A stretch of 64,000 nt of DNA, taken from Armatimonadota bacterium (GTDB taxonomy: Bacteria > Armatimonadota > HRBIN16). Each line of letters begins with the position of its first letter. Positions within the stretch are counted from its first letter, which is position 1. The stretch covers positions 70,317 to 134,316 of the forward strand of contig BPGU01000004.1 in NCBI GenBank assembly GCA_026003195.1. The letters are read 5' to 3'. A program made the position numbers and the translations under genes. Positions 1 through 30,318 of the stretch are shown here, in pieces. Below the pieces are notes generated by a model that saw only the letters and a list, made by a program, of their open reading frames with translations, was not told the origin of the DNA and searched no databases.

Positions 1-28
1 CGCGCCGTAAGGGGTGGTCTTCGCGTGG

Positions 29-1762: not shown

Positions 1763-1943
1763 AAAGTCGTTTCCAGCGTTTTCAGCCCTCCAGCGAATAC
1801 AGGAAGATCAGCCAGGCACTCTGTCCCTTCGCCAAAGCTTCACACCACAGGCAAGCACAGAATGGTTGAGCGTTCTCGTGGCTAGAGCCCCCATAGGATA
1901 TTGTCGGCATCCGGGGGAAACAGGCTCAGTGCGGCAGAGCAGG

Positions 1944-2543: not shown

Positions 2544-2882
2544 TTAGAACAGATTCCCCAGGTCGATGTTTGGCATCCCCGGAAGCGATGTCATTCGCCG
2601 TGTCGCTTCGGCAACCGCCTGCTCGCGTGCTTCATTCACAGCGGAAACAATCAGGTCCTGCAACATCTCCACATCGTTCGGGTCTACCACCACCGGATTG
2701 ATTTCAATGGAGATGAGCTCGCCGGTACCATCCACAACTGCCTTCACCACACCGCCACCCACCGACGATTCTACCCGAAGGTTTTTCAGCTCTTCCTGCG
2801 CCTTTTGCATCTGCTGCATCGTCTGCTCCAGCATCTTTTGCAGGTCGCGCGGGTTCGCTCCGAAAGGATTTCGCATTCTCAT
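2544..2882 (-). CDS. ybaB: Nucleoid-associated protein YbaB/EbfC
   Basis: 112 aa. Matches the YbaB family: MLEQTMQQMQKAQEELKNL...SSVGGGVVKAVVDGTGELISIEI. Conserved dnaX-ybaB-recR gene order. Confidence 0.85.
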   Translation of the reverse strand: MRMRNPFGANPRDLQKMLEQTMQQMQKAQEELKNLRVESSVGGGVVKAVVDGTGELISIEINPVVVDPNDVEMLQDLIVSAVNEAREQAVAEATRRMTSLPGMPNIDLGNLF

Positions 2883-4585
2883 CCTCCCTCCAGTTCAATA
2901 TAGCCGTTGAAAGTCTGCGCTACCTCTTGCGCGTATTGTTCAACATCTATCTCCTCATCATCCTGTCTTTGCTGTGTTGTCTGGCTCGCCGAACGAGAAC
3001 CGATGCTCGTTTGCTGCAGTTCACACCGGATGGTCATCGCCCTGCCACCCAGAAAGCGCGAGATGGTCTGCTCCACAAACTGGCGCCGCTTGTCGGACTG
3101 CATCTGGGCGTATGCGAACTCCGTGCGGAACTGCAGAACCACTGTATTCTTCCCTTCTAAGCGCACCGGCTTGGCGTCACGAAGCACCTCTGCACCGCCG
3201 CGACTGCGCTCCGCTACTCTGGCGATAATTTGTTCCCACCTGCCCTGAACCAGCTTCAGCAGTTCGAGTGCGTCGGCTTCTGGCTGCGAGGTCGTCACCG
3301 GCTCGGACGGGGCACTGGCAGCTGCAGGAGCCGACGCAGGAGCTGAAGCGGTGGGTGCGGATGCCTGTCTGGTTTCCTCAGGGCGAGAAGGGAAGGGCGG
3401 GGGAATATTCTCCTTCGCCCTGGCTTCGGTAACTGGCGGTGTCGTCGCGGCGGGTTTTACTGCCGTTTGCCCGCTGTTCAAGGGGGCAGCCGGTTCCGTT
3501 TCCTGTTTCATGCGGGCTATCTGTACCATCGCCATATCCAGAAGCACGCGCTGTTGGGGCACGTTACGCAATTGCGCCTGAGCACGCACGAGGATATCCA
3601 GCATCCCGCTCAGCGTGTCGGGGGTGAAATGCTGTGCCAGTGCTTTGAGCGCGCTCCGTTGTGCCACAGGAAGGCTTTCATCCAGTGCGCCTACCCGGGC
3701 GTACAGCAGATCGCGGACGCGCTGGGCAACTGCCTCCAGCACAGTGCGCACGCTACTCCCACGTCGCAGCATCTCGTCCGCCGCCATTAACGCCTTTGCC
3801 ACATCGCCGCGTGCAGCGGCGTTTATCACTGCACCGACCGCCTCTTCATCCACAATGCCCAGCACCGAGCGCACGGTCTCGTCATCTACATGTCCGCCTG
3901 CATATGCCAGAACCTGCTCCAGCAAGCTCAGGGCGTCCCGGAAGGAACCATCTGCCGCTCGCGCGATGGCTTGCACTGCTTCTGGCTCGGCGGTCAGACC
4001 TTCGCGCTCCAGAACGGTGTGGATGCGGAGAACCAGGTCTTCCAGAGAGGCGCGGCGGAAATCAAAGCGGATACAGCGCGAACGGATCGTGATGGGCACA
4101 CGCTGTACCTCCGTGGTCGCCAGCACAAACACCACATGCGGAGGCGGTTCTTCCAGCGTTTTGAGCAGGGCATCAAAAGCTTTGGCGGAGAGGTCGTGCA
4201 CTTCGTCGATGATGTATACCTTGTACCGCGCCTGCTGGGGCATATACTGCGCGTTCTCGATGATGGTCTCGCGCACGTCGTCGATGCCCGTTTCCGAGGC
4301 GGCGTCCATCTCTATCACGTCCACCGCCCTGCCCTCGCGAATGGCGATGCACATCGCACACCGGTCACATGGGGTAGGAGTAGGGCCCTGCTCGCAGTTC
4401 AATGCCTTTGCCAGCAGGCGCGCTGTGGTAGTCTTGCCCGTGCCGCGCGGTCCGCAGAACAGATAGGCGTGAGCCACTTTGCCTAAGCGGATGGCGTTCT
4501 GCAGCGTCTGGGTCACGTGCTGCTGCCCGATGACGTCTTCGAACGTCTGCGAGCGGTATTTCCTGTAGAGTGCGATGTGTGCCAT
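2879..4585 (-). CDS. dnaX: DNA polymerase III subunit gamma/tau
   Basis: 568 aa. AAA+ clamp-loader N-terminus (YRSQTFEDVIGQ, GPRGTGKTTTARLLAKALNCE, zinc-module cysteines). Pro/Ala-rich linker and C-terminal tau region. Confidence 0.9.
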   Translation of the reverse strand: MAHIALYRKYRSQTFEDVIGQQHVTQTLQNAIRLGKVAHAYLFCGPRGTGKTTTARLLAKALNCEQGPTPTPCDRCAMCIAIREGRAVDVIEMDAASETGIDDVRETIIENAQYMPQQARYKVYIIDEVHDLSAKAFDALLKTLEEPPPHVVFVLATTEVQRVPITIRSRCIRFDFRRASLEDLVLRIHTVLEREGLTAEPEAVQAIARAADGSFRDALSLLEQVLAYAGGHVDDETVRSVLGIVDEEAVGAVINAAARGDVAKALMAADEMLRRGSSVRTVLEAVAQRVRDLLYARVGALDESLPVAQRSALKALAQHFTPDTLSGMLDILVRAQAQLRNVPQQRVLLDMAMVQIARMKQETEPAAPLNSGQTAVKPAATTPPVTEARAKENIPPPFPSRPEETRQASAPTASAPASAPAAASAPSEPVTTSQPEADALELLKLVQGRWEQIIARVAERSRGGAEVLRDAKPVRLEGKNTVVLQFRTEFAYAQMQSDKRRQFVEQTISRFLGGRAMTIRCELQQTSIGSRSASQTTQQRQDDEEIDVEQYAQEVAQTFNGYIELEGG

Positions 4586-4588
4586 GGT

Positions 4589-5608
4589 TCACAGGTTGGC
4601 GGAAAGCCATTCCTTGAGTATGCTCACCAGCGCGGGCGCAAGAGGTCGCTGTGGGTTTGTCAACACGTCCTGCGTATCGCCCGTCGCAGCATCCTTGAAA
4701 GCATGAGCTGTCCCTCCGATGACTTTCAACTCCACCTGGCTATTTCCTGCGCTGCGTGCATGTTGCAACAGCAGCTCCCCATCCTGTTTGGGCGATACCC
4801 TCTTGTCCATCTCGCCGTACACCAGCAACACAGGAACCTTCACCAGTTTCAAACGCGCCACCGGGTTTTCAAAGTAGAACTCCTGCAAGTAAGGGCGGTC
4901 GGGCAGCATGAAGTAAGGAGCCACGTCCTCGTGCAGAGGAGGCATCGGCAGGCGATAGTAAAGGGCGGCAATGGCGGTGTCAAAATCCCCCAGTCTGCGC
5001 TGGATTTTATCTGCCGACAAGCCCTCGTTTCGCCATCGTTGCTGGAGGTTTTCGCGCAGGATGACAGCGGGCGTGCGCCCCGGCGGAGCCAGACACACCA
5101 GCACTTTGGGCGGGTCAGGCAGTTCTCCCGCCAGCGCCATCCCTATCAGCGCGCCGTCTTCATAACCCAGCACTCCCACGCGCCTGGGGTCCACCTCCGG
5201 CTGCTGACGCAGGAATTGCAAAGCGGCGGCTGCATCGCGGGCGACCTGGCTCAGGGTGGTTTTGCCCTCTTCTTTCTGGGGTATTTTGCTTGCGCCGACA
5301 CCGCGTTTGTCATAGCGCAGGGTCACATATCCCATCTGCGCCAGCTGCTGTGCCAGCTGGCGATAGAGGTCGGTGTTCAGTCCATCGCCGTTACCGTTGC
5401 GGTCTACCGCGCCGCTGCCGGGGATCATCAGCAGGGCAGGCAACTGGGAGGTACGCTGGGGCACGCTCAGCGTCCCCACCAGCACCACCCCATCGCTCTG
5501 AAAACGCACTTCGCGTTCATCCGCCAGAAGAGCCGTTGCCAGTATCAACGTGATCCCGATACCGACCAGCGCGGAACGCATCCTGTTCATCCACTTCATC
5601 ACAGACAT
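4589..5608 (-). CDS. Secreted alpha/beta-hydrolase fold protein (dienelactone-hydrolase-like)
   Basis: The ORF runs to 5824, but a signal peptide (MKWMNRMRSALVGIGITLILATALLA) begins at an internal Met near 5599–5608, so the upstream extension is probably not translated. Alpha/beta hydrolase signature is present, but the usual GxSxG elbow reads GYEDG, which is noncanonical. Confidence 0.55.
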   Translation of the reverse strand: MSVMKWMNRMRSALVGIGITLILATALLADEREVRFQSDGVVLVGTLSVPQRTSQLPALLMIPGSGAVDRNGNGDGLNTDLYRQLAQQLAQMGYVTLRYDKRGVGASKIPQKEEGKTTLSQVARDAAAALQFLRQQPEVDPRRVGVLGYEDGALIGMALAGELPDPPKVLVCLAPPGRTPAVILRENLQQRWRNEGLSADKIQRRLGDFDTAIAALYYRLPMPPLHEDVAPYFMLPDRPYLQEFYFENPVARLKLVKVPVLLVYGEMDKRVSPKQDGELLLQHARSAGNSQVELKVIGGTAHAFKDAATGDTQDVLTNPQRPLAPALVSILKEWLSANL

Positions 5609-5618
5609 CCAAAAACAC

Positions 5619-5909
5619 AGTGATAGAGTAGCCGTGCACCTGCCGTTGATGCGCGCCTTCCGGGTGTCGACCTGCGCAGTTGACTCCGGCTGGGTAGGTC
5701 TGCGGCACACGGCGAGCGTGTGGACCGTTGCTTCCTTCCGGACCTGGCGGGGTTGGCACGTCAACCGTTGCGCAGCGCCCAACCATCGACGCCACTTACG
5801 CAGGCACTGCCCACAAGACGCCACCGCGGGCAGGAGTTCACCCCCGCTATAGCGGATTGCGGGTACAGGGCACCGCTAGCTCCCCGGCTAGCACGGCTAC
5901 TCTATCACT
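5619..5909. repeat. ~291-bp intergenic element bounded by perfect 19-bp terminal inverted repeats (MITE-like)
   Basis: AGTGATAGAGTAGCCGTGC at 5619–5637 and its exact reverse complement at 5891–5909. The element exactly fills the gap between two minus-strand genes. Confidence 0.4.
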
Positions 5910-5930
5910 ATTGTAACACATCGGGTGAGG

Positions 5931-7286
5931 CTATTCCAGACCCGTGTACTCTACCGCCTCCCCTTTGCCGCTCAGCAACTGCTCGCGCGTGAGCATCAGA
6001 TGCTTGCGCACGCGGCGCACGTCCACCGTATACGTCTTACCGTCCTTGTCCACGGTGGTGACCTTGTCCAGGCGCAGATAGCGTTTATCGGTAATGCCTT
6101 CGCCTCGCCAGCCGATGCGGTCCTGCGTCTGGGGCGGTGCATACAGCGGGTTGAACCGCACCGTGATCACGTAGCGCGGAGCCTTAAAGTTATACATCAT
6201 CGGGTCCTTGCTCATGTCAATCTTGCGCTTGAACTTGCCCTTGATGATGGCTATCTGCTCCTGCATAATGGTCACGTCTGGCACCTCGAAGGTAAACACC
6301 TTCTGCCTCCAGACCTCGCCTGCCTCTTTCTCATCGGTCGGCAGGATGGAGGACTTGTAGCCTTCGTCGCGCAGCACCACGTCCACGCGCCCGGGGCGAT
6401 AATCCATCTTCTGCATCTGTTCGTCAAAGTACTGCCCCAGGTCTACCGTGCCGGAGACCTCGATAATCTTGGGCTCTACCACGCGTACCTTGACGTCAAA
6501 CTTGACATCGAGGGGTGGCTGTGTGTCCGGTGGTTGTTTCAGGTAGCGTCGGTACTGGCGCAGATCCGTCAGGGTGTAGTTGTGCTTCGCAACGTCTATC
6601 TGCACGCGCGCCATGTACTCTTTCTTGTGCTGCTCGTAATAGCGTTCATGTCTTTGCAGGATATCCTGCCAGGCGAGCAGGCACTGGTCAATCAGCCCCG
6701 CTTTCTCCCAAGCGTGCGCCAGCATGTGCCTTCGCGCAGGCGGAATGCCCGGTGAGTACTCGTCCGGGCGGTCCGGGAAATCATACGCCTTCTGGAACCA
6801 CTGGACGGAGTTGTGTGCTTGCTTAATCTTGTCGTACCACATCCAGCCCATCTCGAAGTACAAGTCGTACACATCGGGATTGTTCTCCACGCCCTCTTCC
6901 AGCAGTTTCAGCGCGGCGGAGAGGTAGCGTCGGTCCGAACGCTGTTCAGTGTCGGTGAAGTTGTAGCCGATGTGCCACGCGCCGGTGCTGTACACGTCCA
7001 GATTGTGCGGGTCCAGCCAGGTGACCAGCCGGATGATGGGCAGGATGGCATCGTAGTTGCCCTCGTGGAAGAAGGCGTCGGCACGCACCCACAATGCGCC
7101 TGCCACCACTTCGCGAAAGCCCAGCATGGTGCCGAAGATGTACTCGGTGGGCAGACCGGTCATCTTGCCGAACAGCCCCTGTACCTTCGGCTCAAACTGC
7201 TTGCGATGGGGGTCAATCGCGGTCTGCAGGGCTGCGCTCAGCGCCCATAGCACGAGCATAGCCAGTATGAGCTGCGTTCGTCGCAT
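5931..7286 (-). CDS. Secreted hypothetical protein with TPR-like helical N-terminal half and beta-rich C-terminal half
   Basis: 451 aa with an N-terminal signal peptide (MRRTQLILAMLVLWALSAALQTA). Last gene of an ABC-ATPase / ABC-2 permease / this-gene operon, with small gaps or overlaps. No confident family assignment. Confidence 0.5.
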   Translation of the reverse strand: MRRTQLILAMLVLWALSAALQTAIDPHRKQFEPKVQGLFGKMTGLPTEYIFGTMLGFREVVAGALWVRADAFFHEGNYDAILPIIRLVTWLDPHNLDVYSTGAWHIGYNFTDTEQRSDRRYLSAALKLLEEGVENNPDVYDLYFEMGWMWYDKIKQAHNSVQWFQKAYDFPDRPDEYSPGIPPARRHMLAHAWEKAGLIDQCLLAWQDILQRHERYYEQHKKEYMARVQIDVAKHNYTLTDLRQYRRYLKQPPDTQPPLDVKFDVKVRVVEPKIIEVSGTVDLGQYFDEQMQKMDYRPGRVDVVLRDEGYKSSILPTDEKEAGEVWRQKVFTFEVPDVTIMQEQIAIIKGKFKRKIDMSKDPMMYNFKAPRYVITVRFNPLYAPPQTQDRIGWRGEGITDKRYLRLDKVTTVDKDGKTYTVDVRRVRKHLMLTREQLLSGKGEAVEYTGLE

Positions 7287-7288
7287 GG

Positions 7289-8068
7289 TTACACCTCGCG
7301 CCGGTCAAAGATGATGACCGCGATGATCAGCAGCACCGCGATATACAGAACGGCGTAGCCGATGTTCTGGACGTAGTACACCCCTTCATTGATGATGCGT
7401 GTCTCGGGGTGGATAATCTTGTTCTGGACGTTGAAGTTGCCGAACTGGGGCAACAGATAGTGCAACACCGCGCCGATACCCTTCTGGATGATGGTGCGGT
7501 TCTCGCCCTTCATCAGTGACTCGGTCACGCTGGAGAGCGTTCCGACGATGTACACCCCGAGCGACATGAAGAAGTTGACGAAGGGGGTGAGGAACACCGA
7601 GAAGAAAATCGCCAGCGACACCAGAATGCTCATCTGGAAGAAAATCATCATGAAGCCCTTCCAGAGTTCCAGTGCCTGTTTGGGGGTACCTCGCCATGCC
7701 ACAACCGCGAAGAAAACGATGCCCATGAACAGGATGTTGAACAGCATGGTGAGGATTCCGCCCAAAAACTTGCCCAGTACGAACTCGTACCGCTGCACCG
7801 GTTTGGAGAGCACGGTATAAATGGTGCGACGTTCTATCTCGGTGGGTATCAGCGAGATGCCCATCACGATGCAGATGAACATGGAAGCGAGCTGGATCAC
7901 GCCCAGCCCGAGGCTTTTGAGCAGGGTCAGCTCCTCACGCGGAGAGAGGAAGCTGAACAGGGGCGACAAGACAATCAACACCAGTGCCCCGAACAGAAAC
8001 AGCAACACCACACGTCGGCTCAGAGCCTCGCGCACGGTGTTGTAAGCGATCGCCATAACCGCCGTCAT
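7289..8068 (-). CDS. ABC-2 family transporter permease
   Basis: 259 aa, about six predicted TM helices. Start codon overlaps the stop of the upstream ATPase (ATGA). Confidence 0.75.
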   Translation of the reverse strand: MTAVMAIAYNTVREALSRRVVLLFLFGALVLIVLSPLFSFLSPREELTLLKSLGLGVIQLASMFICIVMGISLIPTEIERRTIYTVLSKPVQRYEFVLGKFLGGILTMLFNILFMGIVFFAVVAWRGTPKQALELWKGFMMIFFQMSILVSLAIFFSVFLTPFVNFFMSLGVYIVGTLSSVTESLMKGENRTIIQKGIGAVLHYLLPQFGNFNVQNKIIHPETRIINEGVYYVQNIGYAVLYIAVLLIIAVIIFDRREV

Positions 8069-9009
8069 CTCTTTTCAACCTCCTCAATGGTGGAAACGAA
8101 GAGTTCTTCGAGGGTGCGTCGCTGTGGGGTCAGCGAGCGGATAACTCCATTCGCGCTGCGGATGATGTCTACCACCCTGTTCACCGAGGCGTCGTCCGGT
8201 TGCTGCACCACAATGCGTCCGTCTTGTCGCTGCACCACGCCCCCTGCGTCGCGAATCCTGGCGATGACGCCGTCATCCGAAATGTTCTCGGCAACGATTT
8301 CCACGCGCCCGCTGGGCAACAGCTCGTCCAGTTTGCCCGCCTTCAGCAGCTTGCCGCGGTTGAGGATAGACACGCGGTCGCAGATGAGTTCCACTTCCAG
8401 GAGCTGGTGCGAGCTCAGAAAAACGGTCTTGCCCTGCTGCTTCAGGCGGATGATCAGGTCGCGGATTTCGATGCGCGCCATCGGGTCCAGACCGGATGTC
8501 GGCTCGTCCAAGAACAACAGTTCGGGGTCATTGAGAAGCGCCTGGGCGATGCCAATACGCTGCAGCATTCCTTTGGAATAGTTGCGCAGGGTCTTGTCAC
8601 CGTCGCGCGACAGCCCCACCATATCGAGCAACGCATCCACTTTCTTCTTGCGCTCGCTGGCGGGAATGCCAAACAGTCGGGCGTAGAAATCCAGCACCTG
8701 ACGCCCGGTGAGATACTCGTAAAAGTATGGGCTTTCGGGCAGGTAGGCAATCTGCCTCTTGACGCTCACGTCACCGATAGGCTTGCCGAATATCCAGGCG
8801 TCGCCCTTCGTCGGGAAGATGAGCCCGAGCAGCATCTTGATGGTTGTGGTTTTGCCCGCGCCGTTCGGTCCTAAGAAGCCGAAGATTTCTCCCCTGTATA
8901 CTTCTAGATGCAGATCGTCCACCGCGCGGACCATTTTGCCGGTTGTTTTGTTCAGATACTCTTTGGTGAGACCTTCGATCTTGATGGCTGACTCCATCGT
9001 ACGTGCCAT
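8065..9009 (-). CDS. ABC transporter ATP-binding protein (ABC-2 exporter type with DUF4162-like C-terminal extension)
   Basis: Walker A GPNGAGKTTT, ABC signature YSKGMLQRIGIAQAL, Walker B LLFLDEPTSGLD. Start trimmed to MARTMESAIKIEGL, which has a strong SD (AAAAGGAGG) 6–8 nt upstream; the annotated ORF extends to 9096. Confidence 0.85.
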   Translation of the reverse strand: MARTMESAIKIEGLTKEYLNKTTGKMVRAVDDLHLEVYRGEIFGFLGPNGAGKTTTIKMLLGLIFPTKGDAWIFGKPIGDVSVKRQIAYLPESPYFYEYLTGRQVLDFYARLFGIPASERKKKVDALLDMVGLSRDGDKTLRNYSKGMLQRIGIAQALLNDPELLFLDEPTSGLDPMARIEIRDLIIRLKQQGKTVFLSSHQLLEVELICDRVSILNRGKLLKAGKLDELLPSGRVEIVAENISDDGVIARIRDAGGVVQRQDGRIVVQQPDDASVNRVVDIIRSANGVIRSLTPQRRTLEELFVSTIEEVEKR

Positions 9010-9418
9010 GCCTCCTTTTGGTTGGCGCCCTGAGATATGGGGTTTGTCGCAAAAACCACCGTCGGATAGTATACCGAAAGCCCTGCTCGGTGTCAAACAC
9101 CATCCGCTCTGCAGCAGGGCTCATACAGTATATACGGAAAGCGAGGCGAAAAGGTGCCTCTCATCCCCGAAGGATTCGCGGTTTCGAGCAAAAAACCCGT
9201 GCCTTTGCGAGAGGGAGATGTCCGATTGACGGCTCTGGAGCGGTACGCTAAACTATTTGCGTGGATAATGGACATCAGATTCCTTCTGGTGCGATGGGCG
9301 CGCTCCTTCCTGCCAGAATCTGTAGGGCAATTTTCTCAGCAGGCAGGGAGGAGAAGGTTCGGCAGGAGCCTCGCCCTCCGGGAGGATGATATCGATATCG
9401 GAAAGGAGCGGATATCAG

Positions 9419-10753
9419 ATGCGCTTTCGAACGATGCTTGTGTCCTGCTTGCTGGTATTTTTGTGCGCTCTTGCCAGCGCACAGCGCAAGTACGATTTCG
9501 TGATGTTACCTGCGGATAGTGACCTCAACGCGAACGTTTCCCTGCAGGCGTTTACCAGTGGCACTTTAATCGGCAATTACGACCCCAATACCAACCCCAC
9601 GGGCACGCGCACTAAACCCGGGTTGTTCGGCAATTTTGGAGCTACAGAAAACGTGCCTGTGCCGGTGGAGGTGAACCCTTTGGTGGAAGGCAACGTGGCT
9701 TCCAAACCGGCAGGCACGTTCAGTATGGTGCTGCACCCTGAAGCGGGGCAGGTTGTGCTGCTCGATTTCTTTTCCGACCTGCTGCACTCCGGCGCGGTCA
9801 GCTTGCCTGCCAGCGCGGAGTTCGCCACCGATGGCTTTCGCACGCGCAATCCCACCTCCACTTACCCCGCCGGGCGGTTCACCGTACCGGTAGGAGAAAT
9901 TCTGGTGACTCAGCTGACCGCCACTCAGGTAGGCGAACCGGCGGTGGGCACGCTCAGCCCGCTGGGCGGTAATCGCTACGCATTCGCCGTTGCGCCGACG
10001 GTGGTGCTGACCGTGCGGGCGGAGCTACAGGGTAGCGTGCTGGAGAGCACCTCTAACCCGAATCCCCTTGCACTGGTCGGCGAGGTGGAGATACAGGGCG
10101 ATGCCGCCACCATCCTCTCGGTGAATGCCATCGACTGGTCGGATGTGGATACGCCGAACCAACCCATCCCGCAGTTCGCGATGGACCTGCCTACCGTTTT
10201 CCCGCCCGGCGACGTCGCACACCTGCTGTTTGACCTTACGCTGAACGAGGTGCGCACGCGCGTAAACGGAACCTACACCATCGCCGCCAGCGGTGTGGCG
10301 AGCTACCGCATGGTGAGCGGTACTGTCATGCTGGGCGACTATACCGCACCGACGGGCGGGTTGAACATCCCGATAGAGATACGCACTCCGGGCGAGACGA
10401 CACCTCTGGAGACGCACGTGGTTGCGCTCAACGATGCGGGCGAATATCAGTTCCAGACCGCGCTGTGGGGCACGTTTGACCTCTCTGCGAAAGGCGTGCA
10501 CTGGCTGAGGCACACAGTTTCAGGCATCTCGCTGGAGAAAAATGCGCAGGTGGACTTCACCTTGACAAACGGCGACATCGACGGCGATAATGAGGTGACG
10601 TTGTTCGATTTCGGTGCGCTGGTTGCCGCCTTCGGCAGCATGCCCGGCGATGCTCACTGGAACTCTGAGGCTGACCTGGACGGCGATGAGGAGGTGACGC
10701 TGTTCGATTTCGGTATCCTGGTGAGAAACTTCGGGGCGATAGGAGACGAGTAG
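9419..10753 (+). CDS. Secreted protein with C-terminal dockerin-like (type I) repeat pair
   Basis: Start at MRFRTMLVSCLLVFLCALASAQ (signal peptide), RBS GGAAAGGAG upstream. C-terminus carries two dockerin-type calcium-binding repeats: DIDGDNEVTLFDFGALVAAFG ... DLDGDEEVTLFDFGILVRNFG. Confidence 0.7.
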   Translation: MRFRTMLVSCLLVFLCALASAQRKYDFVMLPADSDLNANVSLQAFTSGTLIGNYDPNTNPTGTRTKPGLFGNFGATENVPVPVEVNPLVEGNVASKPAGTFSMVLHPEAGQVVLLDFFSDLLHSGAVSLPASAEFATDGFRTRNPTSTYPAGRFTVPVGEILVTQLTATQVGEPAVGTLSPLGGNRYAFAVAPTVVLTVRAELQGSVLESTSNPNPLALVGEVEIQGDAATILSVNAIDWSDVDTPNQPIPQFAMDLPTVFPPGDVAHLLFDLTLNEVRTRVNGTYTIAASGVASYRMVSGTVMLGDYTAPTGGLNIPIEIRTPGETTPLETHVVALNDAGEYQFQTALWGTFDLSAKGVHWLRHTVSGISLEKNAQVDFTLTNGDIDGDNEVTLFDFGALVAAFGSMPGDAHWNSEADLDGDEEVTLFDFGILVRNFGAIGDE

Positions 10754-11053
10754 ATGAGCCAACCCTTGATGACCAGACGTCAGTTCCATCTCGCACTGAT
10801 GACATCTGTAGTAGCTCTGGCTGCGCCCGGCGGAGCGCAGGAACCCTCTACACACTCAGTCGACACCTTGCCGGCAGATGTCGTTAACTCCTGGCTTCCC
10901 GCACCGATGCCTCCTGAGCAGGCGCAGAAGGTGGCGGAAGCGGTAAAATCCATGCAGCAAACGTTAGCAAACCTGCGCGCTTACCCTCTACCCGAAGGCT
11001 CCGAGCCTGCTTTCGTATTCCAACCCCGCCCCCTCAGAAAGGAGAAGCGATGA
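10754..11053 (+). CDS. Small twin-arginine (Tat) signal protein, translationally coupled to amidase
   Basis: 99 aa. Tat motif TRRQFHLAL followed by a hydrophobic h-region and AxA-like site. Its stop overlaps the amidase start (ATGA). Confidence 0.5.
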   Translation: MSQPLMTRRQFHLALMTSVVALAAPGGAQEPSTHSVDTLPADVVNSWLPAPMPPEQAQKVAEAVKSMQQTLANLRAYPLPEGSEPAFVFQPRPLRKEKR

Positions 11054-12450
11054 GCGACGACCTGCTGTTCCTCACCGTCACCGAACAGGCGAAGCTACTC
11101 CAGTCACGCAAAATCTCTTCGGTAGAGCTCACAGAAGCTTACCTGCAGGCTTTGCGCACGCGCGGTACCATCCTGCACGCCGTCGCCGAAATCGCCGAAG
11201 AGGTTGCCATGCAGCAGGCACGACAGGCAGACAGAGAAATCGCTTCAGGTAAGTATCGCGGGGTACTGCATGGTATCCCCTACGGCGCCAAAGACCTCTT
11301 CGCCACGAAAGGCATCCCGACACGCTGGGGGTCGCCCGCTCACCGTGACCAGGTTTTGGACTATGACGCCACCGTCATCGAGCGTCTGCAAAAAGCGGGC
11401 GCAGTACTGGTTGCCAAGCTGGCGATGATCGAGCTGGCGGGCGCAGGGGGTTACGAATTTGCTCATGCCTCGGTGACGGGAGCCTGCCGGAACCCCTGGG
11501 ACACAACACGCTGGGCAGGTGGTTCCTCCAGCGGTTCGGGCGCGGCGGTCGCGGCGGGGGCGGTGAGCTTTGCACTGGGTACAGAAACATGGGGTTCCAT
11601 CACCGTGCCTGCCGCTTTCTGCGGGGTAACCGGACTGCGCCCAACCTACGGACGGGTGAGCCGCTATGGAGCGATGGCGTTATCCTGGACAATGGATAAG
11701 ATAGGCCCGATGGCTCGCAGTGCGGAAGACTGCGCCCACATCTTGCAGGCGATTGCTGGGCACGACCCGCGTGACCCATCGAGCGTGGACATGCCTTTCC
11801 GCTATCGCTTCTCCACGTGGCGCAACCACCGTTTCCGCATCGGCTTGCTGCCGGTGGACTTCGCGAAGAACAACGCACCTGATGCCGAACGGTGCTTTAT
11901 GGCGGCTCTGGAGGTGTTCAGGAAGCGTCGAGCGGAGTTTGTGGAAGTGAACCTGCCCGACCTGCCCTATAACGAGGCGGCGGAGGTTATTATCGTGGCG
12001 GAAGGCTCCTCTGCATTTGAGAACCTCATCCGCAGTGGTAAGGTGAACGAGCTGGCAGACCAGTCGCAGGTAACAGGCTTGCTCTCGGGGCTGGCACTCT
12101 CGGCGGTGGACTACCTGCGGGCGATGCGTGTTCGCGCCGAAGCCTCTCGTGCGGTAGCGGAGGTGTTTGAACAGTGTGACGTGCTGATGGCGCCAACCCT
12201 GCTGCAGAGTGCGCCGCCGGTCGATCGCAGTCTGAACGAGACATGGGTGAACATGGGTGGCAACGGCGGTTTCGCTAACCTGACAGGCTTGCCGTCGGTC
12301 TCCGTGCCGATGGGTTTCACTGCCAGCGGGTTGCCTCTGGGGCTGGAGATGATCGGCGCACCGTACGAGGAAGCGAAAATGCTGGCTCTGGCGCAGGTTT
12401 TCCAGCAGGAGACGGACTGGCATCGGAGGCGTCCACGTGCTCTGGGCTAA
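11050..12450 (+). CDS. Amidase (amidase-signature family)
   Basis: 466 aa. Amidase-signature Gly/Ser-rich motif GGSSSGSGAAVAAGAVSFALGTETWGSI with the catalytic Ser-cisSer-Lys context. No signal peptide of its own. Confidence 0.85.
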   Translation: MSDDLLFLTVTEQAKLLQSRKISSVELTEAYLQALRTRGTILHAVAEIAEEVAMQQARQADREIASGKYRGVLHGIPYGAKDLFATKGIPTRWGSPAHRDQVLDYDATVIERLQKAGAVLVAKLAMIELAGAGGYEFAHASVTGACRNPWDTTRWAGGSSSGSGAAVAAGAVSFALGTETWGSITVPAAFCGVTGLRPTYGRVSRYGAMALSWTMDKIGPMARSAEDCAHILQAIAGHDPRDPSSVDMPFRYRFSTWRNHRFRIGLLPVDFAKNNAPDAERCFMAALEVFRKRRAEFVEVNLPDLPYNEAAEVIIVAEGSSAFENLIRSGKVNELADQSQVTGLLSGLALSAVDYLRAMRVRAEASRAVAEVFEQCDVLMAPTLLQSAPPVDRSLNETWVNMGGNGGFANLTGLPSVSVPMGFTASGLPLGLEMIGAPYEEAKMLALAQVFQQETDWHRRRPRALG

Positions 12451-12503
12451 AAGCAGGCATTGTATCTCGCCTCGCTATGGGTTTCTTTCCTTTAGAGTAT
12501 ACT

Positions 12504-13499
12504 CTACACCGTCACCGTCAGTCCTTCTTCGGGTATCCACTGACGCAGGTAGTCGGCGTTGCGCTTCAGATCGTCCAGAATAACATCCTCGCGCTTGGTG
12601 GAGCCGGGGATGATTTCACAGATCAGATAGATGTTCTGTGGCAGGGGTAGCCACTCTGCCCACGGCTGCTCATCGCGCCAACGCAGGCTCTCGGCGATGG
12701 CATCCAGCACCTTCGGTATCTCGATATGCCCCTTCGCGTTGTATTCAGGGGTGAAGGGCCAGTGTGCGCTGGCGTCGGGCGTGGTCTGCTGCAGGTGTAT
12801 CACCTCCGCCGCCGTGCCGAAGCGGCGCAGCCATTCGGTGTAGTCCAGGTCGGCACCGCTCAAGCCGTAGTGCATCCCGGCGCAGTGCCCCACGTCCAGC
12901 GTCAGATAAACGGGTATGCCCTTGCGCTCACGGTTCACTTCCACCAGAAAGCGTTCCGCTTCGGCTAAGGTCCAGGGCGATTCGCTGGGGATGTACATCT
13001 GCTCCTGATACAGCGCGCGGATACCCTTCTGCGCCAGCGCTTCGGAGAGTTCGCGGAAGATGGCGTACTGTCGGTGCAATGCCTCTTCGTGGCGCGCGGG
13101 GTCGGAGAGTACCTCCACCGAGAAAGCGTCCCAGTGACCGCCGATAGCATCCACCCCCATCGCGCTGGCGATGTCGGCGCACTCGATAATCCACTCTTTC
13201 ATACGCTGGCGCACGCGCGGGTCGGAATGACTCAAACCGTGAAATCGGTGCGTGGCAACGCCGGTGTAGATGTCGTTGATGAACACACCGTACTTCTGCG
13301 CCGCTTCGCGGGTCGCGTGGGCTGTCTCTATTTGATACTCTTTGTCGCCGGAGAAGAAGGGGTCCAACACATCTGCACAAAACGAATGCACCCGATAACC
13401 GCATTCGCGGGTCAGGCGCATCCAGTTTTCGGGTTCCTCCCATCGGCGCGTGAGAAATGCGCCATTGATGCCCAACCATAGCTTGACGCTCTTGCTCAT
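12504..13499 (-). CDS. Sugar phosphate isomerase/epimerase (xylose-isomerase-like TIM barrel)
   Basis: 331 aa. Family-level similarity pattern (LGINGAFL..., metal-binding His/Asp/Glu pattern of AP-endonuclease-2 / xylose-isomerase-like TIM barrels). Confidence 0.65.
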   Translation of the reverse strand: MSKSVKLWLGINGAFLTRRWEEPENWMRLTRECGYRVHSFCADVLDPFFSGDKEYQIETAHATREAAQKYGVFINDIYTGVATHRFHGLSHSDPRVRQRMKEWIIECADIASAMGVDAIGGHWDAFSVEVLSDPARHEEALHRQYAIFRELSEALAQKGIRALYQEQMYIPSESPWTLAEAERFLVEVNRERKGIPVYLTLDVGHCAGMHYGLSGADLDYTEWLRRFGTAAEVIHLQQTTPDASAHWPFTPEYNAKGHIEIPKVLDAIAESLRWRDEQPWAEWLPLPQNIYLICEIIPGSTKREDVILDDLKRNADYLRQWIPEEGLTVTV

Positions 13500-13834
13500 G
13501 CTTCCTCCTCAAACGGTTGCCAGCGACAGGATGTCATATCTACCCGTCCGTCCTCGTGGAACCGTACACCCTCTTGCTGCAGCAGGTGACGTTGCAGAGC
13601 CGCCATGCGCGGGTCGCGTTTGGCAATCAGCAGGTCGCCCTCTTTGCCGACCACGCGCCACCAGGGAACACTGTCAGGAGCGTGGTACATCACCCTCCCC
13701 ACGATGCGTGCAGAGAGAGGTGGTACCATCCAGTCGCCCACCTGCCCGTACGACATCACCCTGCCAGCAGGAATCTGCCGCACCAGGTCATATACCTCTT
13801 GCATCAGGTTTGCGCCGATTCGCTGGCGTAACAT
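13496..13834 (-). CDS. MGMT-family DNA-binding protein (alkyltransferase-like, Atl-type)
   Basis: Ogt/MGMT C-terminal DNA-binding-domain pattern (VYDLVRQIPAGRVMSYGQVG...). The active-site PCHRV is replaced by PWWRVV, as in Atl proteins. The ORF is GTG-extended to 13975; I placed the start at an internal Met, which is uncertain. Confidence 0.45.
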   Translation of the reverse strand: MLRQRIGANLMQEVYDLVRQIPAGRVMSYGQVGDWMVPPLSARIVGRVMYHAPDSVPWWRVVGKEGDLLIAKRDPRMAALQRHLLQQEGVRFHEDGRVDMTSCRWQPFEEEA

Positions 13835-14067
13835 TTTCTGGGTTACTGCAGTCTGTATGATGGACGGACGGCAGCACATTTCGCTGTAGAAACAGCGTAT
13901 TCCTGCCATGATGAGTACAGGGCAGGAAGGAGGGAGGTCTTTTCGTGGTGGACAGGCTGTTTCGGGGCAAAACACAAGCGACGCTTTGGCGCGAAGCTCT
14001 CTCTACGACTCTGTTCTTGTGGAAGACAAGCACCGATTTCGCGCGCTCTGCAGGAAAGGGAGGCAGA

Positions 14068-14994
14068 ATGTCGGCTCTTCTGCGCATAATGCTCTGGACG
14101 GCGATGGTGTTGCTGGTGCATGTGGCGGCTGTGGCTCAGCAGGCACCGGTTCAGACGACGCCGCAGCTGTTCCGCTACCGTTTTGAGCCGGGCACTCCAG
14201 CAAAGTATCGGGTGAGCGCACAGATGTCGGGCACTTTGCCGTTGTTCGGTGGCTTGCCGGTAGAAAAGGTGCTGCTGGATATGACGGTAGTGTTGAAGGC
14301 GCGTCAGGTGCGTCCCGACGGCAACGTGGAACTGGGTATTGATGTGGAGACGTTCAAAGCGGAGATGGACGGGCAAGCGTTGCCGTTGCCGGTAGACCGT
14401 CTGCGTGCCAGTGTGCGCGACCTGGTGTTTGTGGTCACTCCACAGGGCGAGATCGTGGAGCGGAAAGGGGGAGGCGCAATGCCTTTCAGTATACCCATTC
14501 CGGGCATAGAAGCGAGCCAGCTGCCCTTGCTGGTGCTTCAACTGGTGTTTCCTCGCGAACCCCTCTCCAGAGAGCAGGAATGGAGCTATACTCGCGCCAT
14601 GACCACCCTCCCTAACGACACTCCTGCCCAGTTCACGGCACGATGGCTCAAAGAGGAGGCGGTGCACCATCTGGACGCCTCGCTGTTTCATCAGAAGATG
14701 CACTGGAGCCGCTCGTTCAAAGCGGACGTCTTTGACCTGCCTACCACCGACGAGAGCCTGATGGTCAAACAGATAGAACAGACCGTCAACGGCGAGGCGC
14801 AGATATGGTTCAGCCGCGCCGACGGCAGGCTGGTCAAAGCGGTGCTGGATGCACAATATGAGCAGCGGGCTCGCCTGCTGAATCCCGGCGAAACCGCCTC
14901 ACAACCCGCTCCGGCACGATTAACAGCCAGAGTGCAAATCACCCGCGAGGAACTGCTTTCTCGCGAGCAGCAAAACGGACAAACCGAAAGATAG
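14068..14994 (+). CDS. Secreted hypothetical protein, paralog of the next gene
   Basis: Start at MSALLRIMLWTAMVLLVHVAAVAQQ (signal peptide) with RBS AGGAAAGGGAGG; the longer ORF from 13945 is rejected. Shares sequence pattern with the 15010 product (Y+hRF/+hF..G..Y+h...G; ...DG.hEL.h.h.TF+.EM.GQ). Confidence 0.6.
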   Translation: MSALLRIMLWTAMVLLVHVAAVAQQAPVQTTPQLFRYRFEPGTPAKYRVSAQMSGTLPLFGGLPVEKVLLDMTVVLKARQVRPDGNVELGIDVETFKAEMDGQALPLPVDRLRASVRDLVFVVTPQGEIVERKGGGAMPFSIPIPGIEASQLPLLVLQLVFPREPLSREQEWSYTRAMTTLPNDTPAQFTARWLKEEAVHHLDASLFHQKMHWSRSFKADVFDLPTTDESLMVKQIEQTVNGEAQIWFSRADGRLVKAVLDAQYEQRARLLNPGETASQPAPARLTARVQITREELLSREQQNGQTER

Positions 14995-15009
14995 AAAGGG
15001 GTACGACAC

Positions 15010-15885
15010 ATGAGGTTCATGACACGATTTTTGACAGCGATGGCAGTTGTCACTTTGCTTACGGTAACAGTATTGCCTGCACTGGCGCAAGAGGGCTACA
15101 AACTGCGCCACGTCTTCAAGGTCAACGACATCCGCCGTTACAAGATGGTCATGGATATGAACGGCGAGATGCAGATGGGCGAGAACTCCATGCCCCAGAA
15201 CATGCAGATGGTGATGACCTATCGCGAAAAGGTAGCGGGCATCAAGGACGGCAAGGCGACCGTCCACACTACCTTCGAAGGAACGAAGATGTACATGAAC
15301 GGTCAGGAGTTCGTCTCGCCGATGGCTCCCGACATGAACAACATGGTCATCACCACAGTGATCGACGACCGCAACAAAGTGTATGAAATCAAGGGGCTGG
15401 AAAAGGTATCTATGGGCGCGCCCGGTATGGGCATCCTGAACATCGTCACGGTGTTCAATCCGCGTGCTGAGTTTCCCGAAGGAGAGATTAAAGTAGGCGA
15501 CTCGTGGGAGACCAAGGTGTACATTCCCAACGCGGGCGACCTGAAGATCACGGCCAAACAAACCTTTGTGAGCGTGGAGAAGGTCGGAGAGGTGGAAGCT
15601 GCCCGCATCAAGACCGAGTTCGAAATACCTTCTGAGAAGCTGATGGCAGCAATGGCAGGGCAATCTCCTGCGGGCGTCCCTCCCATGACGGGGACCTCCA
15701 AGATGGTGTCATACACCTACTTCGATCTTGCCACCGGCAACATTCTGAAGATGGATGGCGACATGGTCATGAGCATGCAGATGCTGGGCGGTGCGAACCG
15801 GCAGATGCCGCAGAACATGCAAATGAACATGACCGCCAAGATATCGCTGATGCAGGTGAAAGAGGAGAAGCCAGCGGGGAAATAA
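15010..15885 (+). CDS. Secreted Met/Gln-rich hypothetical protein
   Basis: 291 aa with signal peptide MRFMTRFLTAMAVVTLLTVTVLPALAQ. Multiple MxM/MQM motifs (MQMGENSMPQNMQMVM; MSMQMLGGANRQMPQNMQMNM). Confidence 0.6.
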   Translation: MRFMTRFLTAMAVVTLLTVTVLPALAQEGYKLRHVFKVNDIRRYKMVMDMNGEMQMGENSMPQNMQMVMTYREKVAGIKDGKATVHTTFEGTKMYMNGQEFVSPMAPDMNNMVITTVIDDRNKVYEIKGLEKVSMGAPGMGILNIVTVFNPRAEFPEGEIKVGDSWETKVYIPNAGDLKITAKQTFVSVEKVGEVEAARIKTEFEIPSEKLMAAMAGQSPAGVPPMTGTSKMVSYTYFDLATGNILKMDGDMVMSMQMLGGANRQMPQNMQMNMTAKISLMQVKEEKPAGK

Positions 15886-15996
15886 GCCACATCTTCATCA
15901 GGGGGATTGCTTCGGCACCTCCTGCCATGCAACGTCATGGCAAGGCAGCGTAGCAACCGAAGCAATCTCCCAGTGCATCTTTATGCTGGATAAAAA

Positions 15997-16914
15997 ATGC
16001 CTCACCTTATCACACTCCGCACCGTCGCGATGGGCTGCGACTTCGAAGTATTCGCCTTCGGAGAAGAGAGAGGGCTATTGCGCTCCGCTGCAGAGGCGGC
16101 TGTCGAGGAGATAGAGCGCATCGAGCAGCTGCTCAGCCACTATCTCCCCGAGAGTGAAATCAGCTACCTCAATGCCCACGCCGCCATCGAGCCAGTGCGT
16201 GTACATCCCGAAGTGTTCGCTCTGATAGAGCGCGCGCTACGCCTTTCCGAAGAGACACAGGGAGCGTTCGACATTACCGTGATGCCGTTGATACAGTGCT
16301 GGGGGTTCTTCGCGGGTGTTGGGCAGATACCGGATGCTCAAACTGTGGCGCAGGCTGTGGAACGGGTGGGGTCTTCGCGTCTCCTTTTGAATACGGAGAA
16401 TCTGACTGTTGCCTTTGACCGCGAGGGCGTACAGGTGCATCTGGGCGCTATCGGCAAGGGATATGCGGTGGACAAGGCGATAGAAGTGTTGCGTGACGCC
16501 GGTGTGGAAGCGGCGATGGTGCACGGTGGACATAGCAGTGTGCGGGCGTACGGAACCCCTCCCGATACGGGAGGCTGGCAGATAAACCTCCCCCATCCCC
16601 TGTATCCTGAACGTAGCCTTGCCCACTTACTGCTGCGCAATCGGGCAATATCCACCTCATCAGCAACCGAGCAGTACTTCGAGCGCGGCGGGCGGCGGTA
16701 TGGGCATATTCTGGACCCCCGCACGGGCTTGCCAGTGGAAAACAACCTGCTCTGTGTGAGCGTGCTCGCGGATGAGGCAGCGGTGACCGATGCGCTCTCG
16801 ACCGCCTTCTTCGTGCTGGGTGAAAGAGGGGTTCGGGAATACGTTGCCTCGCATGCGGGGGTGCAGGTAGCTCTACTGCGACAGGATGGCGAGCAGATCG
16901 AGTGGATAGGCTGA
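15997..16914 (+). CDS. apbE: FAD:protein FMN transferase (ApbE family)
   Basis: 305 aa. ApbE signature GAIGKGYAVD and Mg/FAD-binding C-terminal region. Confidence 0.85.
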   Translation: MPHLITLRTVAMGCDFEVFAFGEERGLLRSAAEAAVEEIERIEQLLSHYLPESEISYLNAHAAIEPVRVHPEVFALIERALRLSEETQGAFDITVMPLIQCWGFFAGVGQIPDAQTVAQAVERVGSSRLLLNTENLTVAFDREGVQVHLGAIGKGYAVDKAIEVLRDAGVEAAMVHGGHSSVRAYGTPPDTGGWQINLPHPLYPERSLAHLLLRNRAISTSSATEQYFERGGRRYGHILDPRTGLPVENNLLCVSVLADEAAVTDALSTAFFVLGERGVREYVASHAGVQVALLRQDGEQIEWIG

Positions 16915-17028
16915 GGTGCTTTGGGCAGGAGAACATCCCCAGATTTGTGAAGTATAATGTGTACGGCGAAGATATTCGCCGACAACATTGGCTGCGGTTC
17001 TGAAGCGGTTTGAGGAGGTTGAGGTTTC

Positions 17029-18387
17029 ATGTTCAAAGACAAGCATATTCAGGTATCCCGGCGCGAGTTTTTGCGCGACTCGGCATGGGCTGCTGCCGCT
17101 GCCGCCTTCGCAGCAGCATTTCAGGAGAGACTGGAGGCGCAACAGAAAAAGGGCCAGCCTGCCAGGACACAACCAGCAAAGCCAGCGACGCAACAAGCAA
17201 AACCCACGCCACAACCCGCCCGCAACCTGCCCCCGGTGAACATCGGTTTTATCGGCACGGGCACACAGGGGCAAACGCTGCTGCAACGCCTTGTGCGTAT
17301 CCCCGGTGTGCGCGTGCTGGCGGTGTGCGACATCTATCCACCGCATCTGTCGCGAGGGTTGCGTATGGCGGGTGCGCAGGCAAAAGGCTACGAGGACTAT
17401 CGGCAGGTTCTGGACAGAAAAGACATTGATGCGGTCATTATCGCAACGCCCCTATACCTGCACGCCCCCATGAGCATCGACGCCCTGCAGGCAGGCAAAC
17501 ATGTGTTCTGTGAAAAGACGATGGCTTATTCCGTGGAGGATGCGCGACGCATGGTGCAGGTCTCCCGTGAGACGGGCAAGCATCTGCAAATCGGACACCA
17601 GCGCCACTACAGCCCCATCTACGCGCACGCTCGCGAGATGATGGTGGAGCAAGAGGTTATCGGCAAGCTGGTACATGTGCGCGCATGGTGGCATCGCAAT
17701 AACTCGTGGCGGCGCCCCGTGCCCGATAAAAAGTACGAGGAGCTGCTGAACTGGAGGCTCTACCGCAAGTACTCACAGGGGCTGATGGCGGAGCTCGCCA
17801 GCCACCAGATAGACGTGGTCAACTGGTTTACCGGTGCAACGCCCATTTCGGTGATGGGCATGGGTGGAATCGACTACTGGAAGGACGAGCGTGAGGTATG
17901 GGATAACGTGGAGGTTATCTACGAATATCCCGACGGCGTGAAGGTCGTTTACACCTCTATCCTGTCTAACCAGTACGATGGCTATGCCGAGCAGTTCATG
18001 GGCGACAAAGGCACGTTGCTGCTCACGAACGAGAAGGACGGCTTCCTGTTCAAAGAGCCCACCGCGGAAGAACTCGGCTGGGAAGCACACGCCAAGAAAG
18101 CCGCAGGCAAGGGAGGCACCACCGGTCTGGTGCTGGATGTCACTGCCACCAAGAAGAGAGGCACTGGGGCGGTTATCGGTGGGCAGAAGATGGCGGCGGG
18201 CTATGAGCTGAAGGATGCCTACACTCTGGAGCTGGAAAGCTTCGTCAACGACGTGGTACGCAACGGGCAAAAACCGCTGTGCGACGCGGAAGTAGGTTTC
18301 AAAACAGCGGTCGCCGTGCTGATGGCAAACAAAGCCATCGAGGAGGGCACAAAGGTGACCTTTACACCCGACATGTTCCAGGTGTAA
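17029..18387 (+). CDS. Tat-secreted Gfo/Idh/MocA family oxidoreductase
   Basis: Twin-arginine signal SRREFLRDSAWAAAAAAFAAA. Rossmann motif NIGFIGTGTQGQ and GFO_IDH_MocA C-terminal domain. Confidence 0.85.
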   Translation: MFKDKHIQVSRREFLRDSAWAAAAAAFAAAFQERLEAQQKKGQPARTQPAKPATQQAKPTPQPARNLPPVNIGFIGTGTQGQTLLQRLVRIPGVRVLAVCDIYPPHLSRGLRMAGAQAKGYEDYRQVLDRKDIDAVIIATPLYLHAPMSIDALQAGKHVFCEKTMAYSVEDARRMVQVSRETGKHLQIGHQRHYSPIYAHAREMMVEQEVIGKLVHVRAWWHRNNSWRRPVPDKKYEELLNWRLYRKYSQGLMAELASHQIDVVNWFTGATPISVMGMGGIDYWKDEREVWDNVEVIYEYPDGVKVVYTSILSNQYDGYAEQFMGDKGTLLLTNEKDGFLFKEPTAEELGWEAHAKKAAGKGGTTGLVLDVTATKKRGTGAVIGGQKMAAGYELKDAYTLELESFVNDVVRNGQKPLCDAEVGFKTAVAVLMANKAIEEGTKVTFTPDMFQV

Positions 18388-18392
18388 CCGCA

Positions 18393-18427
18393 GGGGCAGG
18401 GGCAGAGCTCTGCCCGCCCCTTTCTCA
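18393..18427. terminator. GC-rich palindromic hairpin between convergent genes (putative bidirectional terminator)
   Basis: GGGCAGAGCTCTGCCC perfect palindrome, followed by CCCCTTTCTC. Confidence 0.45.
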
Positions 18428-18431
18428 CTGC

Positions 18432-19523: not shown

Positions 19524-19581
19524 GGACGCTCCCTCACGTACCGTTCCACTCGAATTATACCACCACGGGGCAAAATCTGTC

Positions 19582-30315: not shown

Positions 30316-30318
30316 CGT

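Follow-up and report, generated by a model that had tools for sequence, protein, structure and literature searches.

What is the tail that closes two otherwise unlike secreted proteins of an Armatimonadota bacterium, and to what might it attach them? Both proteins are encoded in the 64,000 nucleotides analysed here (the window; positions 70,317 to 134,316 of contig BPGU01000004.1, assembly GCA_026003195.1), and both end in a pair of dockerin-like repeats. A first, sequence-only reading of the window had labelled these repeats canonical type I dockerins. In this study we find that the tails of both proteins are, by profile match and predicted fold, X-module–dockerin (XDoc) dyads, homologous to the type II dyads of clostridial scaffoldins, and that closely similar tails are carried by many different proteins of the lineage.

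The C-terminal module of the two proteins

Protein 1 (444 aa) is encoded at 9419-10753 on the forward strand and protein 2 (777 aa) at 47405-49738 on the reverse strand. Each begins with a Sec-type signal peptide (ASA|Q and ALA|Q, read off the sequence), continues into its own body, which is all beta in protein 1 and a WD40-like beta-propeller in protein 2, and closes with an X module followed by a dockerin. The C-terminal sequences are ...NGDIDGDNEVTLFDFGALVAAFGSMPGDAHWNSEADLDGDEEVTLFDFGILVRNFGAIGDE in protein 1 and ...IGDVDGDNEVTLLDFGRMVAAFGRFAGEEGYDIDADLDGDGEVSLWDFSWLVAHFGMVGDE in protein 2, each ending with two copies of the motif D-x-D-G-D-x-E-V-(T/S)-L-x-D-F-x-x-(L/M)-V-x-x-F-G. A loose regular expression for calcium loop and helix, run over the six-frame translation of the window, returned four segments, exactly those of proteins 1 and 2; on 100 codon shuffles the same expression averaged 0.05 matches and never exceeded 1. 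When the two proteins were compared by BLASTP, the alignment was confined to the final ~95 residues (49% identity, E 6e-21); the bodies are hence unrelated, and what the proteins share extends beyond a dockerin. With both open reading frames (ORFs) and their signal peptides in place, the earlier description of repeat pairs closing two unrelated secreted proteins holds.

The shared unit is about 150 aa long and consists of an immunoglobulin (Ig)-like beta-sandwich of ~85-93 aa that passes without a linker into a 61-aa dockerin. The latter is built from two tandem segments of ~22 residues, each a 12-residue EF-hand-like calcium loop and then a helix. In protein 1 the X module, a CarboxypepD_reg-like sandwich (10313-10567, forward strand), is joined directly to the dockerin (10568-10750), which has two F-hand segments and a C-terminal GDE; its loops DIDGDNEVTLFD (10574-10609) and DLDGDEEVTLFD (10673-10708) are followed by FGALVAAFG and FGILVRNFG, respectively. 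The X module of protein 2 (residues 624-716; 47591-47869, reverse strand) is a divergent subtype with an EHLRYTLRD motif, and the dockerin behind it (47408-47590), likewise of 61 aa and ending in GDE, has the loops DVDGDNEVTLLD (47584-47549) and DLDGDGEVSLWD (47485-47450). In an alignment of 40 modules (A2) at least 90% of the sequences have D at each of the calcium-ligand positions 1, 3, 5 and 12 of the two loops, a pattern from which the dockerin loops would be expected to bind calcium.

An alignment of protein 1 with its relatives (A1) showed that many Armatimonadota proteins whose N-terminal parts are unrelated close with a stretch 55-70% identical to the final ~146 residues of protein 1. 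When A2 was searched as a profile hidden Markov model (HMM; hmmsearch) against all sequences of the PDB, the six best matches were type II XDoc chains (4wi0_B, 2b59_B, 4u3s_B, 5k39_B, 3kcp_A and 5g5d_B). The first two reached E values of 2.7e-11 and 3.5e-11 over profile positions 33-145, that is, over beta-sandwich and dockerin together. Type I dockerins scored about eight orders of magnitude worse (2vn6_B, 3e-3; 5nrm_B, 0.02). Calmodulin came out at E 0.009 or worse, with no single stretch passing, and there was no thrombospondin entry among the profile matches to the PDB; generic EF-hand or thrombospondin-type repeats, named at the outset as the better fit that would count against dockerins, therefore describe the tails less well than XDoc dyads do. 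In the window the A2 HMM matches residues 310-455 of protein 1, counted in a 455-aa version of its ORF, and residues 624-777 of protein 2.

Modelling of the C-termini against dockerin structures, proposed as a check with the first reading, points the same way. The AlphaFold2 (AF2) model of protein 1 has a predicted local distance difference test (pLDDT) score of 88.4 and consists of a signal helix, an all-beta body, in agreement with the beta-rich body first described, a beta-sandwich with strands at 316-382, and two helices at 395-404 and 428-436; the sandwich is the part that the profile search aligns with the X modules in 4wi0_B and 2b59_B. In a Foldseek search of the PDB its ten best matches were exclusively XDoc chains, with target-normalised template-modelling (TM) scores of 0.69-0.77 against the dyad-only chains and root-mean-square deviations (rmsd) of 2.7-3.6 A over ~157 columns. 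The C-terminal 177 residues of protein 2, modelled separately (pLDDT 82.7), show the same loop-helix arrangement and brought the same ten chains to the top, with TM scores of 0.54-0.60 for those that consist of the dyad only. These alignments of predicted models, ~157-170 columns long, span X module and dockerin. Since profile matches and predicted folds agree, both tails are best described as XDoc dyads, and the type I label has to be given up, although the Pfam family Dockerin_1 (PF00404) does come close: protein 1 scores 21.9 bits, just under the cut-off of 22.9, protein 2 lies above it with 25.9 bits, and paralogues range from 20.5 to 27.1 bits.

As to the remaining parts of the two proteins, protein 1 starts with the ATG at 9419, which is preceded by AGGAG and is the start annotated in its 444-aa orthologues. 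Its signal peptide (MRFRTMLVSCLLVFLCALASA|Q, 9419-9481) was read off the sequence and appears in the model as a helix at 4-15 with low pLDDT. The body (9482-10312), of ~277 aa, belongs to no family in Pfam and NCBIfam scans. Outer-membrane barrels were considered as relatives of this body, and the Foldseek alignments (TM at most 0.26, rmsd ~22 A) were regarded as meaningless. The body of protein 2 (residues ~25-623; 47870-49666) fits the 777-aa beta-propeller first described in that its Pfam matches are of the WD40 type (best E 9e-11) and the majority of its 3966 relatives at E <=0.001 are WD40-repeat proteins, although all of the Pfam matches stay below threshold. Exact-sequence look-ups with the 455-aa and 444-aa versions of protein 1 returned no record; a 94% identical orthologue, P0001, is known.

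Spread, conservation and cargo of the module

How far the tail extends beyond the window was examined with a module scan of one genome per species of the GTDB. The module is encoded in 271 stretches, and the best 80 of these were fetched; they come from 11 genomes, all of them Armatimonadota-type metagenome-assembled genomes (MAGs). Gene calling on 79 distinct loci, three earlier loci and the window yielded 1071 genes, among which the A2 HMM, run locally, found 95 module-bearing proteins. Counted in the best 80 stretches, HR16 has at least 16 copies and the MAG Ch118 at least 15. The count of two dockerin proteins given by the sequence-only reading is thus right for the window and falls short for the wider family. 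When A2 was searched past this clade, the 120 matches listed were all Armatimonadota-type proteins. In about 92 of the 95 proteins no more than two residues follow the module, in about 85 none, and the conserved final residues are GDE or GDD. In the thermophilic Armatimonadota lineage HR16/KatS3mg022, to which the bacterium of the window belongs, the XDoc dyad is a standard C-terminal tail of Sec-secreted proteins.

Conservation is distributed very unevenly within the dyad. Between modules on cargos of different families (3144 pairs), mean identity is 84% for the 61-aa dockerin and 40% for the X half, and the high identity of the dockerin spans the helices as well as the calcium loops; its two segments are nearly symmetric. 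For comparison, whole 444-aa orthologues of protein 1 in the same genomes, which are hot-spring MAGs (KatS3mg022, HR16, Chthonomonadetes, Candidatus Fervidibacterota), are 94-65% identical. A near-invariant dockerin on unrelated proteins is what a shared binding partner would be expected to impose. It might also be that the tail has no partner and is a calcium-binding stabiliser of EF-hand-like or thrombospondin type, which makes secreted proteins more rigid at high temperature. The loops do fit the 12-residue EF-hand pattern, calmodulin is found among the weak PDB matches, the lineage is thermophilic, and the passage of PMC9012536 that cites Peer et al. 2009 speaks of many genomes with dockerins of no recognised function. 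We nevertheless consider a mere stabiliser rather unlikely: XDoc chains outscore calmodulin by a wide margin, X module and dockerin match as one unit, and the identity of the dockerin, helices included, across unrelated cargos exceeds what calcium binding needs.

Three variants of the module deserve mention. Proteins of 80-100 aa that appeared to be stand-alone dockerins (P0211, P0229, P0216, P0163 and P0203) were considered as a separate class and set aside; as they start inside the X module and have no signal peptides, they seem to be gene calls cut short or copies in decay. A DUF7901 family of ~325-370 aa combines the X module with a single dockerin segment, an unusual half-dockerin, and its genes (L017:10514-11500, L018:10428-11540, L019:10438-11511, L020:9934-10911 and L022:10544-11536; locus and positions) always lie directly downstream of a gene for a ~1450-aa subtilase with an XDoc tail. 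In the 742-aa protein of L005:13359-15587 the order is reversed, with a dockerin at 28-96, an X-like module at 115-188 and then ~550 further residues, the only non-C-terminal placement seen.

Without their modules the proteins sort into 20 cargo families, whose representatives were run against Pfam. Among them are a ~1450-aa subtilase (Peptidase_S8) with Big_3_5 domains, propellers of the LVIVD, Sortilin/BNR and WD40-like groups (protein 2 belongs to the last), DUF7901, a protein with fn3 and purple-acid-phosphatase-N domains, and several families without a Pfam match, the body of protein 1 among them. A glycoside hydrolase (GH) was found in none of the 20 representatives, and none of the flanking GH5, GH9, GH106 and GH116 genes carries an XDoc tail. 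Since the cargos found are free of GH and the neighbouring GH genes are untailed, the system is not a cellulosome. Nor did Pfam detect a cohesin in the two window proteins or in 20 other representatives of module families, as would be expected had one of them been a scaffoldin carrying the tail.

These observations bear on the reading closest to the first one, in which canonical type I dockerins would plug enzymes into a multi-cohesin scaffoldin, giving a cellulosome-like complex at the surface beside exosortase sorting. The Dockerin_1 matches speak for it, as do the near-symmetric segments, which resemble those of type I dockerins with a dual binding mode, and the presence of one dockerin type on many paralogues, as in cellulosomal enzymes. 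However, the closest relatives are type II XDoc dyads, the cargos lack GH, no cohesin or multi-repeat scaffoldin appeared in any individually scanned protein, and cohesin and dockerin have been reported absent in a cultured relative among the Armatimonadota, F. sacchari (PMC11535203). We therefore consider the cellulosome-like reading very unlikely.

Exchange with PEP-CTERM and the search for a partner

A second C-terminal tail on secreted proteins of this bacterium is PEP-CTERM. Neither dockerin protein carries it (the ends read ...FGAIGDE and ...FGMVGDE; Pfam and NCBIfam), and two other window proteins do: one at 49866-50645 on the forward strand, the divergent neighbour of the gene for protein 2 (TIGR02595 18.8 bits, cut-off 16; PF07589 18.1 bits), in which Pfam finds no cohesin, and one at 32825-33481 on the reverse strand (PF07589 26.8 bits). 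Hence PEP-CTERM proteins are present as first described. Pfam scans of 23 distinct window ORFs brought up no exosortase (EpsH/XrtA-type) gene. The PEP-CTERM gene beside the propeller gene had also been singled out; it is there, but such adjacency is not enriched in the fetched loci, where it applies to 2 of the 93 genes with the module and to 16 of the 898 others (p 0.68). This neighbour was considered as a conserved partner of the tail and dismissed, both for the unenriched adjacency and for having no homologue in the fetched loci.

What links the two tails is the cargo. The body of protein 1 recurs, with ~45% identity over ~300 aa, in proteins of Phycisphaerae, Planctomycetes and Fimbriimonadales that end in PEP-CTERM; in three of these homologues (P0116, P0047 and P0064) the PEP-CTERM match reaches or exceeds Pfam's cut-off. 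The same body is followed by a bare dockerin-like pair in two Phycisphaerales proteins, and by a dockerin pair and then a PEP-CTERM-like tail in P0031. Within the lineage itself, two adjacent genes on HR16 contig BEHS01000024.1 (L061:5348-6391 and L061:6461-7114) encode cargos that are 80% identical over 195 aa and part after MDIDNV.L.PV, the first continuing into an XDoc tail and the second into the PEP-CTERM PEPAGLAVLGAGLAWLWRRRRV. In a second pair, L038:11833-12960 (PEP-CTERM) and L080:9374-10435 (XDoc), the cargos are 67% identical. XDoc and PEP-CTERM are alternative C-terminal modules for the same passengers. As both tails serve the same passengers, XDoc would set where or how a protein is held and not what it does. 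For protein 2, all close full-length homologues of the propeller body carry its own XDoc subtype, and no PEP-CTERM version was found among them.

It is conceivable that the XDoc tail, too, serves in sorting or secretion and, instead of docking stably, is recognised and perhaps cleaved off by machinery of the envelope in the manner of PEP-CTERM/exosortase or of the C-terminal domains (CTDs) of the type IX secretion system (T9SS). Its strict place at the extreme C-terminus with a conserved GDE or GDD end, its interchange with PEP-CTERM on the same cargo and the unrelatedness of the cargos would all suit such a signal. The tail moreover includes a beta-sandwich, and T9SS CTDs contain one as well. 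The neighbourhood of genes for prepilin-type proteins (FTLIELLVVIAIIAILAAILFPVFA..AREKAR, DUF1559-like) may be taken in the same sense: they adjoin 8 of 93 module genes and 25 of 898 others (odds ratio 3.3, p 0.009), several of them standing immediately upstream of XDoc genes on the same strand, although the test overstates independence because some of these contexts are orthologous. The strongest constraint in the tail, however, lies on the dockerin, whose fold is known for binding other proteins; a candidate for such machinery did not turn up; P0031, with a dockerin pair and a PEP-CTERM-like tail, indicates that the tails are not simple equivalents; and the pilin adjacency comes from few, non-independent contexts. 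A sorting signal is thus an unlikely explanation, although one with several observations in its favour. Prepilin-type genes are abundant in these genomes, and those upstream of XDoc genes with varied cargo include L003:9277-9903, L027:8069-8884, L046:4321-5025, L061:7138-7956, L064:8047-8751 and L067:2941-3894.

We consider it probable that the XDoc tail docks, in a calcium-dependent manner, to one shared receptor. An XDoc protein would be exported by Sec, its dockerin would fold around two Ca2+ with the X module as structural support, as in type II dyads, and the near-invariant helical face of the dockerin would then attach to a common envelope receptor, for which a cohesin-like module is the simplest candidate. 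As a result a protease, propellers and other non-cellulolytic proteins would be tethered to the same place. That such a receptor exists, what its nature is and where in the cell the XDoc proteins reside are points that we infer. A diderm envelope is supported, since the window encodes an Omp85/BamA-type outer-membrane protein with POTRA domains (40352-41857, reverse strand; PF01103 121 bits).

Several points weigh against docking to a shared receptor of this kind. The first concerns cohesins (PF00963). None was matched in ~60 different proteins scanned individually with Pfam, each scan being readable on its own: the 23 window ORFs, in keeping with the earlier statement that the window holds no cohesin scaffold, 20 representatives of other module families and 20 PEP-CTERM or large secreted neighbours. 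When 87 more secreted neighbours were run against Pfam as a pool, no cohesin occurred among the 25 most frequent of 180 families, weak evidence that excludes only a cohesin common to at least three of the 87. A phmmer search of the 1071 genes with cohesin 7 of CipA (sequence verified against 1AOH) also found nothing, with low sensitivity for divergent cohesins. The precomputed Pfam annotation of three neighbourhoods of GCA_026003175.1 (KatS3mg022) likewise lists no cohesin. All these partner tests cover ~1.15 Mb, a small part of the genomes. Secondly, a Sec signal takes a protein of a diderm cell to the periplasm only, and surface exposure is a further step. Thirdly, known XDoc dyads sit on scaffoldins and not on enzymes or propellers. 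Finally, function as a sorting signal or thermal stability could account for the strong conservation as well.

A related possibility is that XDoc is a lineage-specific, folded, calcium-dependent envelope anchor of diderm Armatimonadota, exchangeable with PEP-CTERM, whose receptor is not a classical cohesin and might, for example, be an outer-membrane or a pseudopilin-type (DUF1559-like) protein like those frequently encoded just upstream. We hold this to be rather improbable; if true, it would amount to a new principle of protein sorting or display made from cellulosome parts.

The surroundings of the two genes add some observations of their own. The gene order of window positions 1-20000 is the same in KatS3mg022 contig BPGT01000006.1 (GCA_026003175.1). 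Right after the stop codon of the gene for protein 1 starts a conserved 99-aa ORF (10754-11053) with a twin-arginine (Tat)-like RRQFH leader, which overlaps the start of an amidase gene (11050-12450) by 4 nt; the order of the three genes is kept in at least eight related genomes, which suggests that protein 1, the small ORF and the amidase form one operon. A DUF6785/DUF6784 membrane protein (23913-25898, forward strand; 537 bits) has a paralogue near an XDoc gene in L002:16888-18807. On the reverse strand, a run of membrane or unknown genes (28814-32693) is found just upstream of the PEP-CTERM gene at 32825-33481 and a glucuronyl-esterase-like gene at 33611-34750. The run includes DUF6754 (31146-31949) and three ORFs (28814-31128) to which Pfam assigns no family; homologues of some of these ORFs and a homologue of the PEP-CTERM protein are clustered in locus L069. 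An ordinary housekeeping cluster of tRNA-Trp, EF-Tu (38757-39959), tRNA-Thr and tRNA-Tyr occupies 38460-40261, also on the reverse strand, and is overlapped by long spurious ORFs on the opposite strand.

Known systems and meaning for the lineage

The nearest known relatives of the module are the type II XDoc dyads of CipA of C. thermocellum (2B59, 3KCP, 5G5D), of ScaA of A. cellulolyticus (4U3S, 4WI0) and of the CipB type, again from C. thermocellum (5K39, 5M0Y). With these it shares the Ig-like X module joined directly to a dockerin of two F-hands at the extreme C-terminus, the profile matches of E ~3e-11 over both modules, predicted folds with TM scores of 0.54-0.77, and the motifs GD..(x)DN.(I/V)(N/T)L.D and a helix end F(G/N), at a sequence identity to the PDB dyads of 16-23%. 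The differences are nonetheless considerable. The host is a diderm Armatimonadota and not a Gram-positive clostridium; at least 15 varied carriers in HR16 and in Ch118, none of them a carbohydrate-active enzyme (CAZyme), take the place of scaffoldins; both calcium loops are fully canonical (D at 1, 3, 5 and 12) in near-symmetric segments; and neither a type II cohesin nor an S-layer homology (SLH) anchor was found in the material scanned. Type I dockerins (PF00404) have in common with the module the duplicated calcium segment of ~22 residues, Pfam matches near the cut-off and the use of one type on many proteins, but here an X module is always present, XDoc structures score better and the cargo is not GH. 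At the recognition positions 10 and 11 the Armatimonadota dockerins are hydrophobic (L-F), where type I dockerins of C. thermocellum have S-T.

Compared with PEP-CTERM/exosortase (TIGR02595, PF07589), the XDoc tail is likewise a C-terminal addition to secreted proteins with varied passengers. PEP-CTERM, however, takes up ~24 residues, a motif that comprises a transmembrane helix and a basic cluster, whereas XDoc is a folded, soluble module of ~150 aa without a transmembrane segment. Cohesins and dockerins outside cellulosomes have been documented, as noted in the passages of PMC9012536 that cite Peer et al. 2009 and that treat anaerobic methanotrophic (ANME) archaea, and the PVC bacterium Limihaloglobus has a scaffoldin with two cohesins (PMC11557425). 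As in those cases, the dockerins described here stand on proteins unrelated to cellulose degradation and, among the proteins scanned, occur without classic scaffoldins; unlike them, they come as a full XDoc dyad that is highly multiplied, extremely conserved and interchangeable with PEP-CTERM. The mere presence of dockerin repeats is therefore not new, since non-cellulosomal dockerins are documented and some of these MAG proteins already carry the NCBI label 'dockerin type I domain-containing protein'. We found no earlier description of a full XDoc dyad in a diderm phylum, of at least 15 copies with a near-invariant dockerin, of XDoc on non-CAZyme cargo or of its direct interchange with PEP-CTERM, and our literature search found no paper with both 'dockerin' and 'PEP-CTERM'.

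In conclusion, non-cellulosomal dockerins have been known since 2009 and their role has mostly gone unexplained; the HR16/KatS3mg022 lineage offers an unusually clean case. A conserved bait in each genome, together with tandem paralogues that differ in carrying XDoc or PEP-CTERM, makes the question of what such dockerins dock to directly testable, and the tandem pair of L061 is a natural tail-swap suited to a comparison of localisation. The module could also serve as a thermostable, calcium-switchable tag for protein display. These tails provide a good experimental handle on an old question, and would represent a new principle only should the receptor prove not to be a cohesin.

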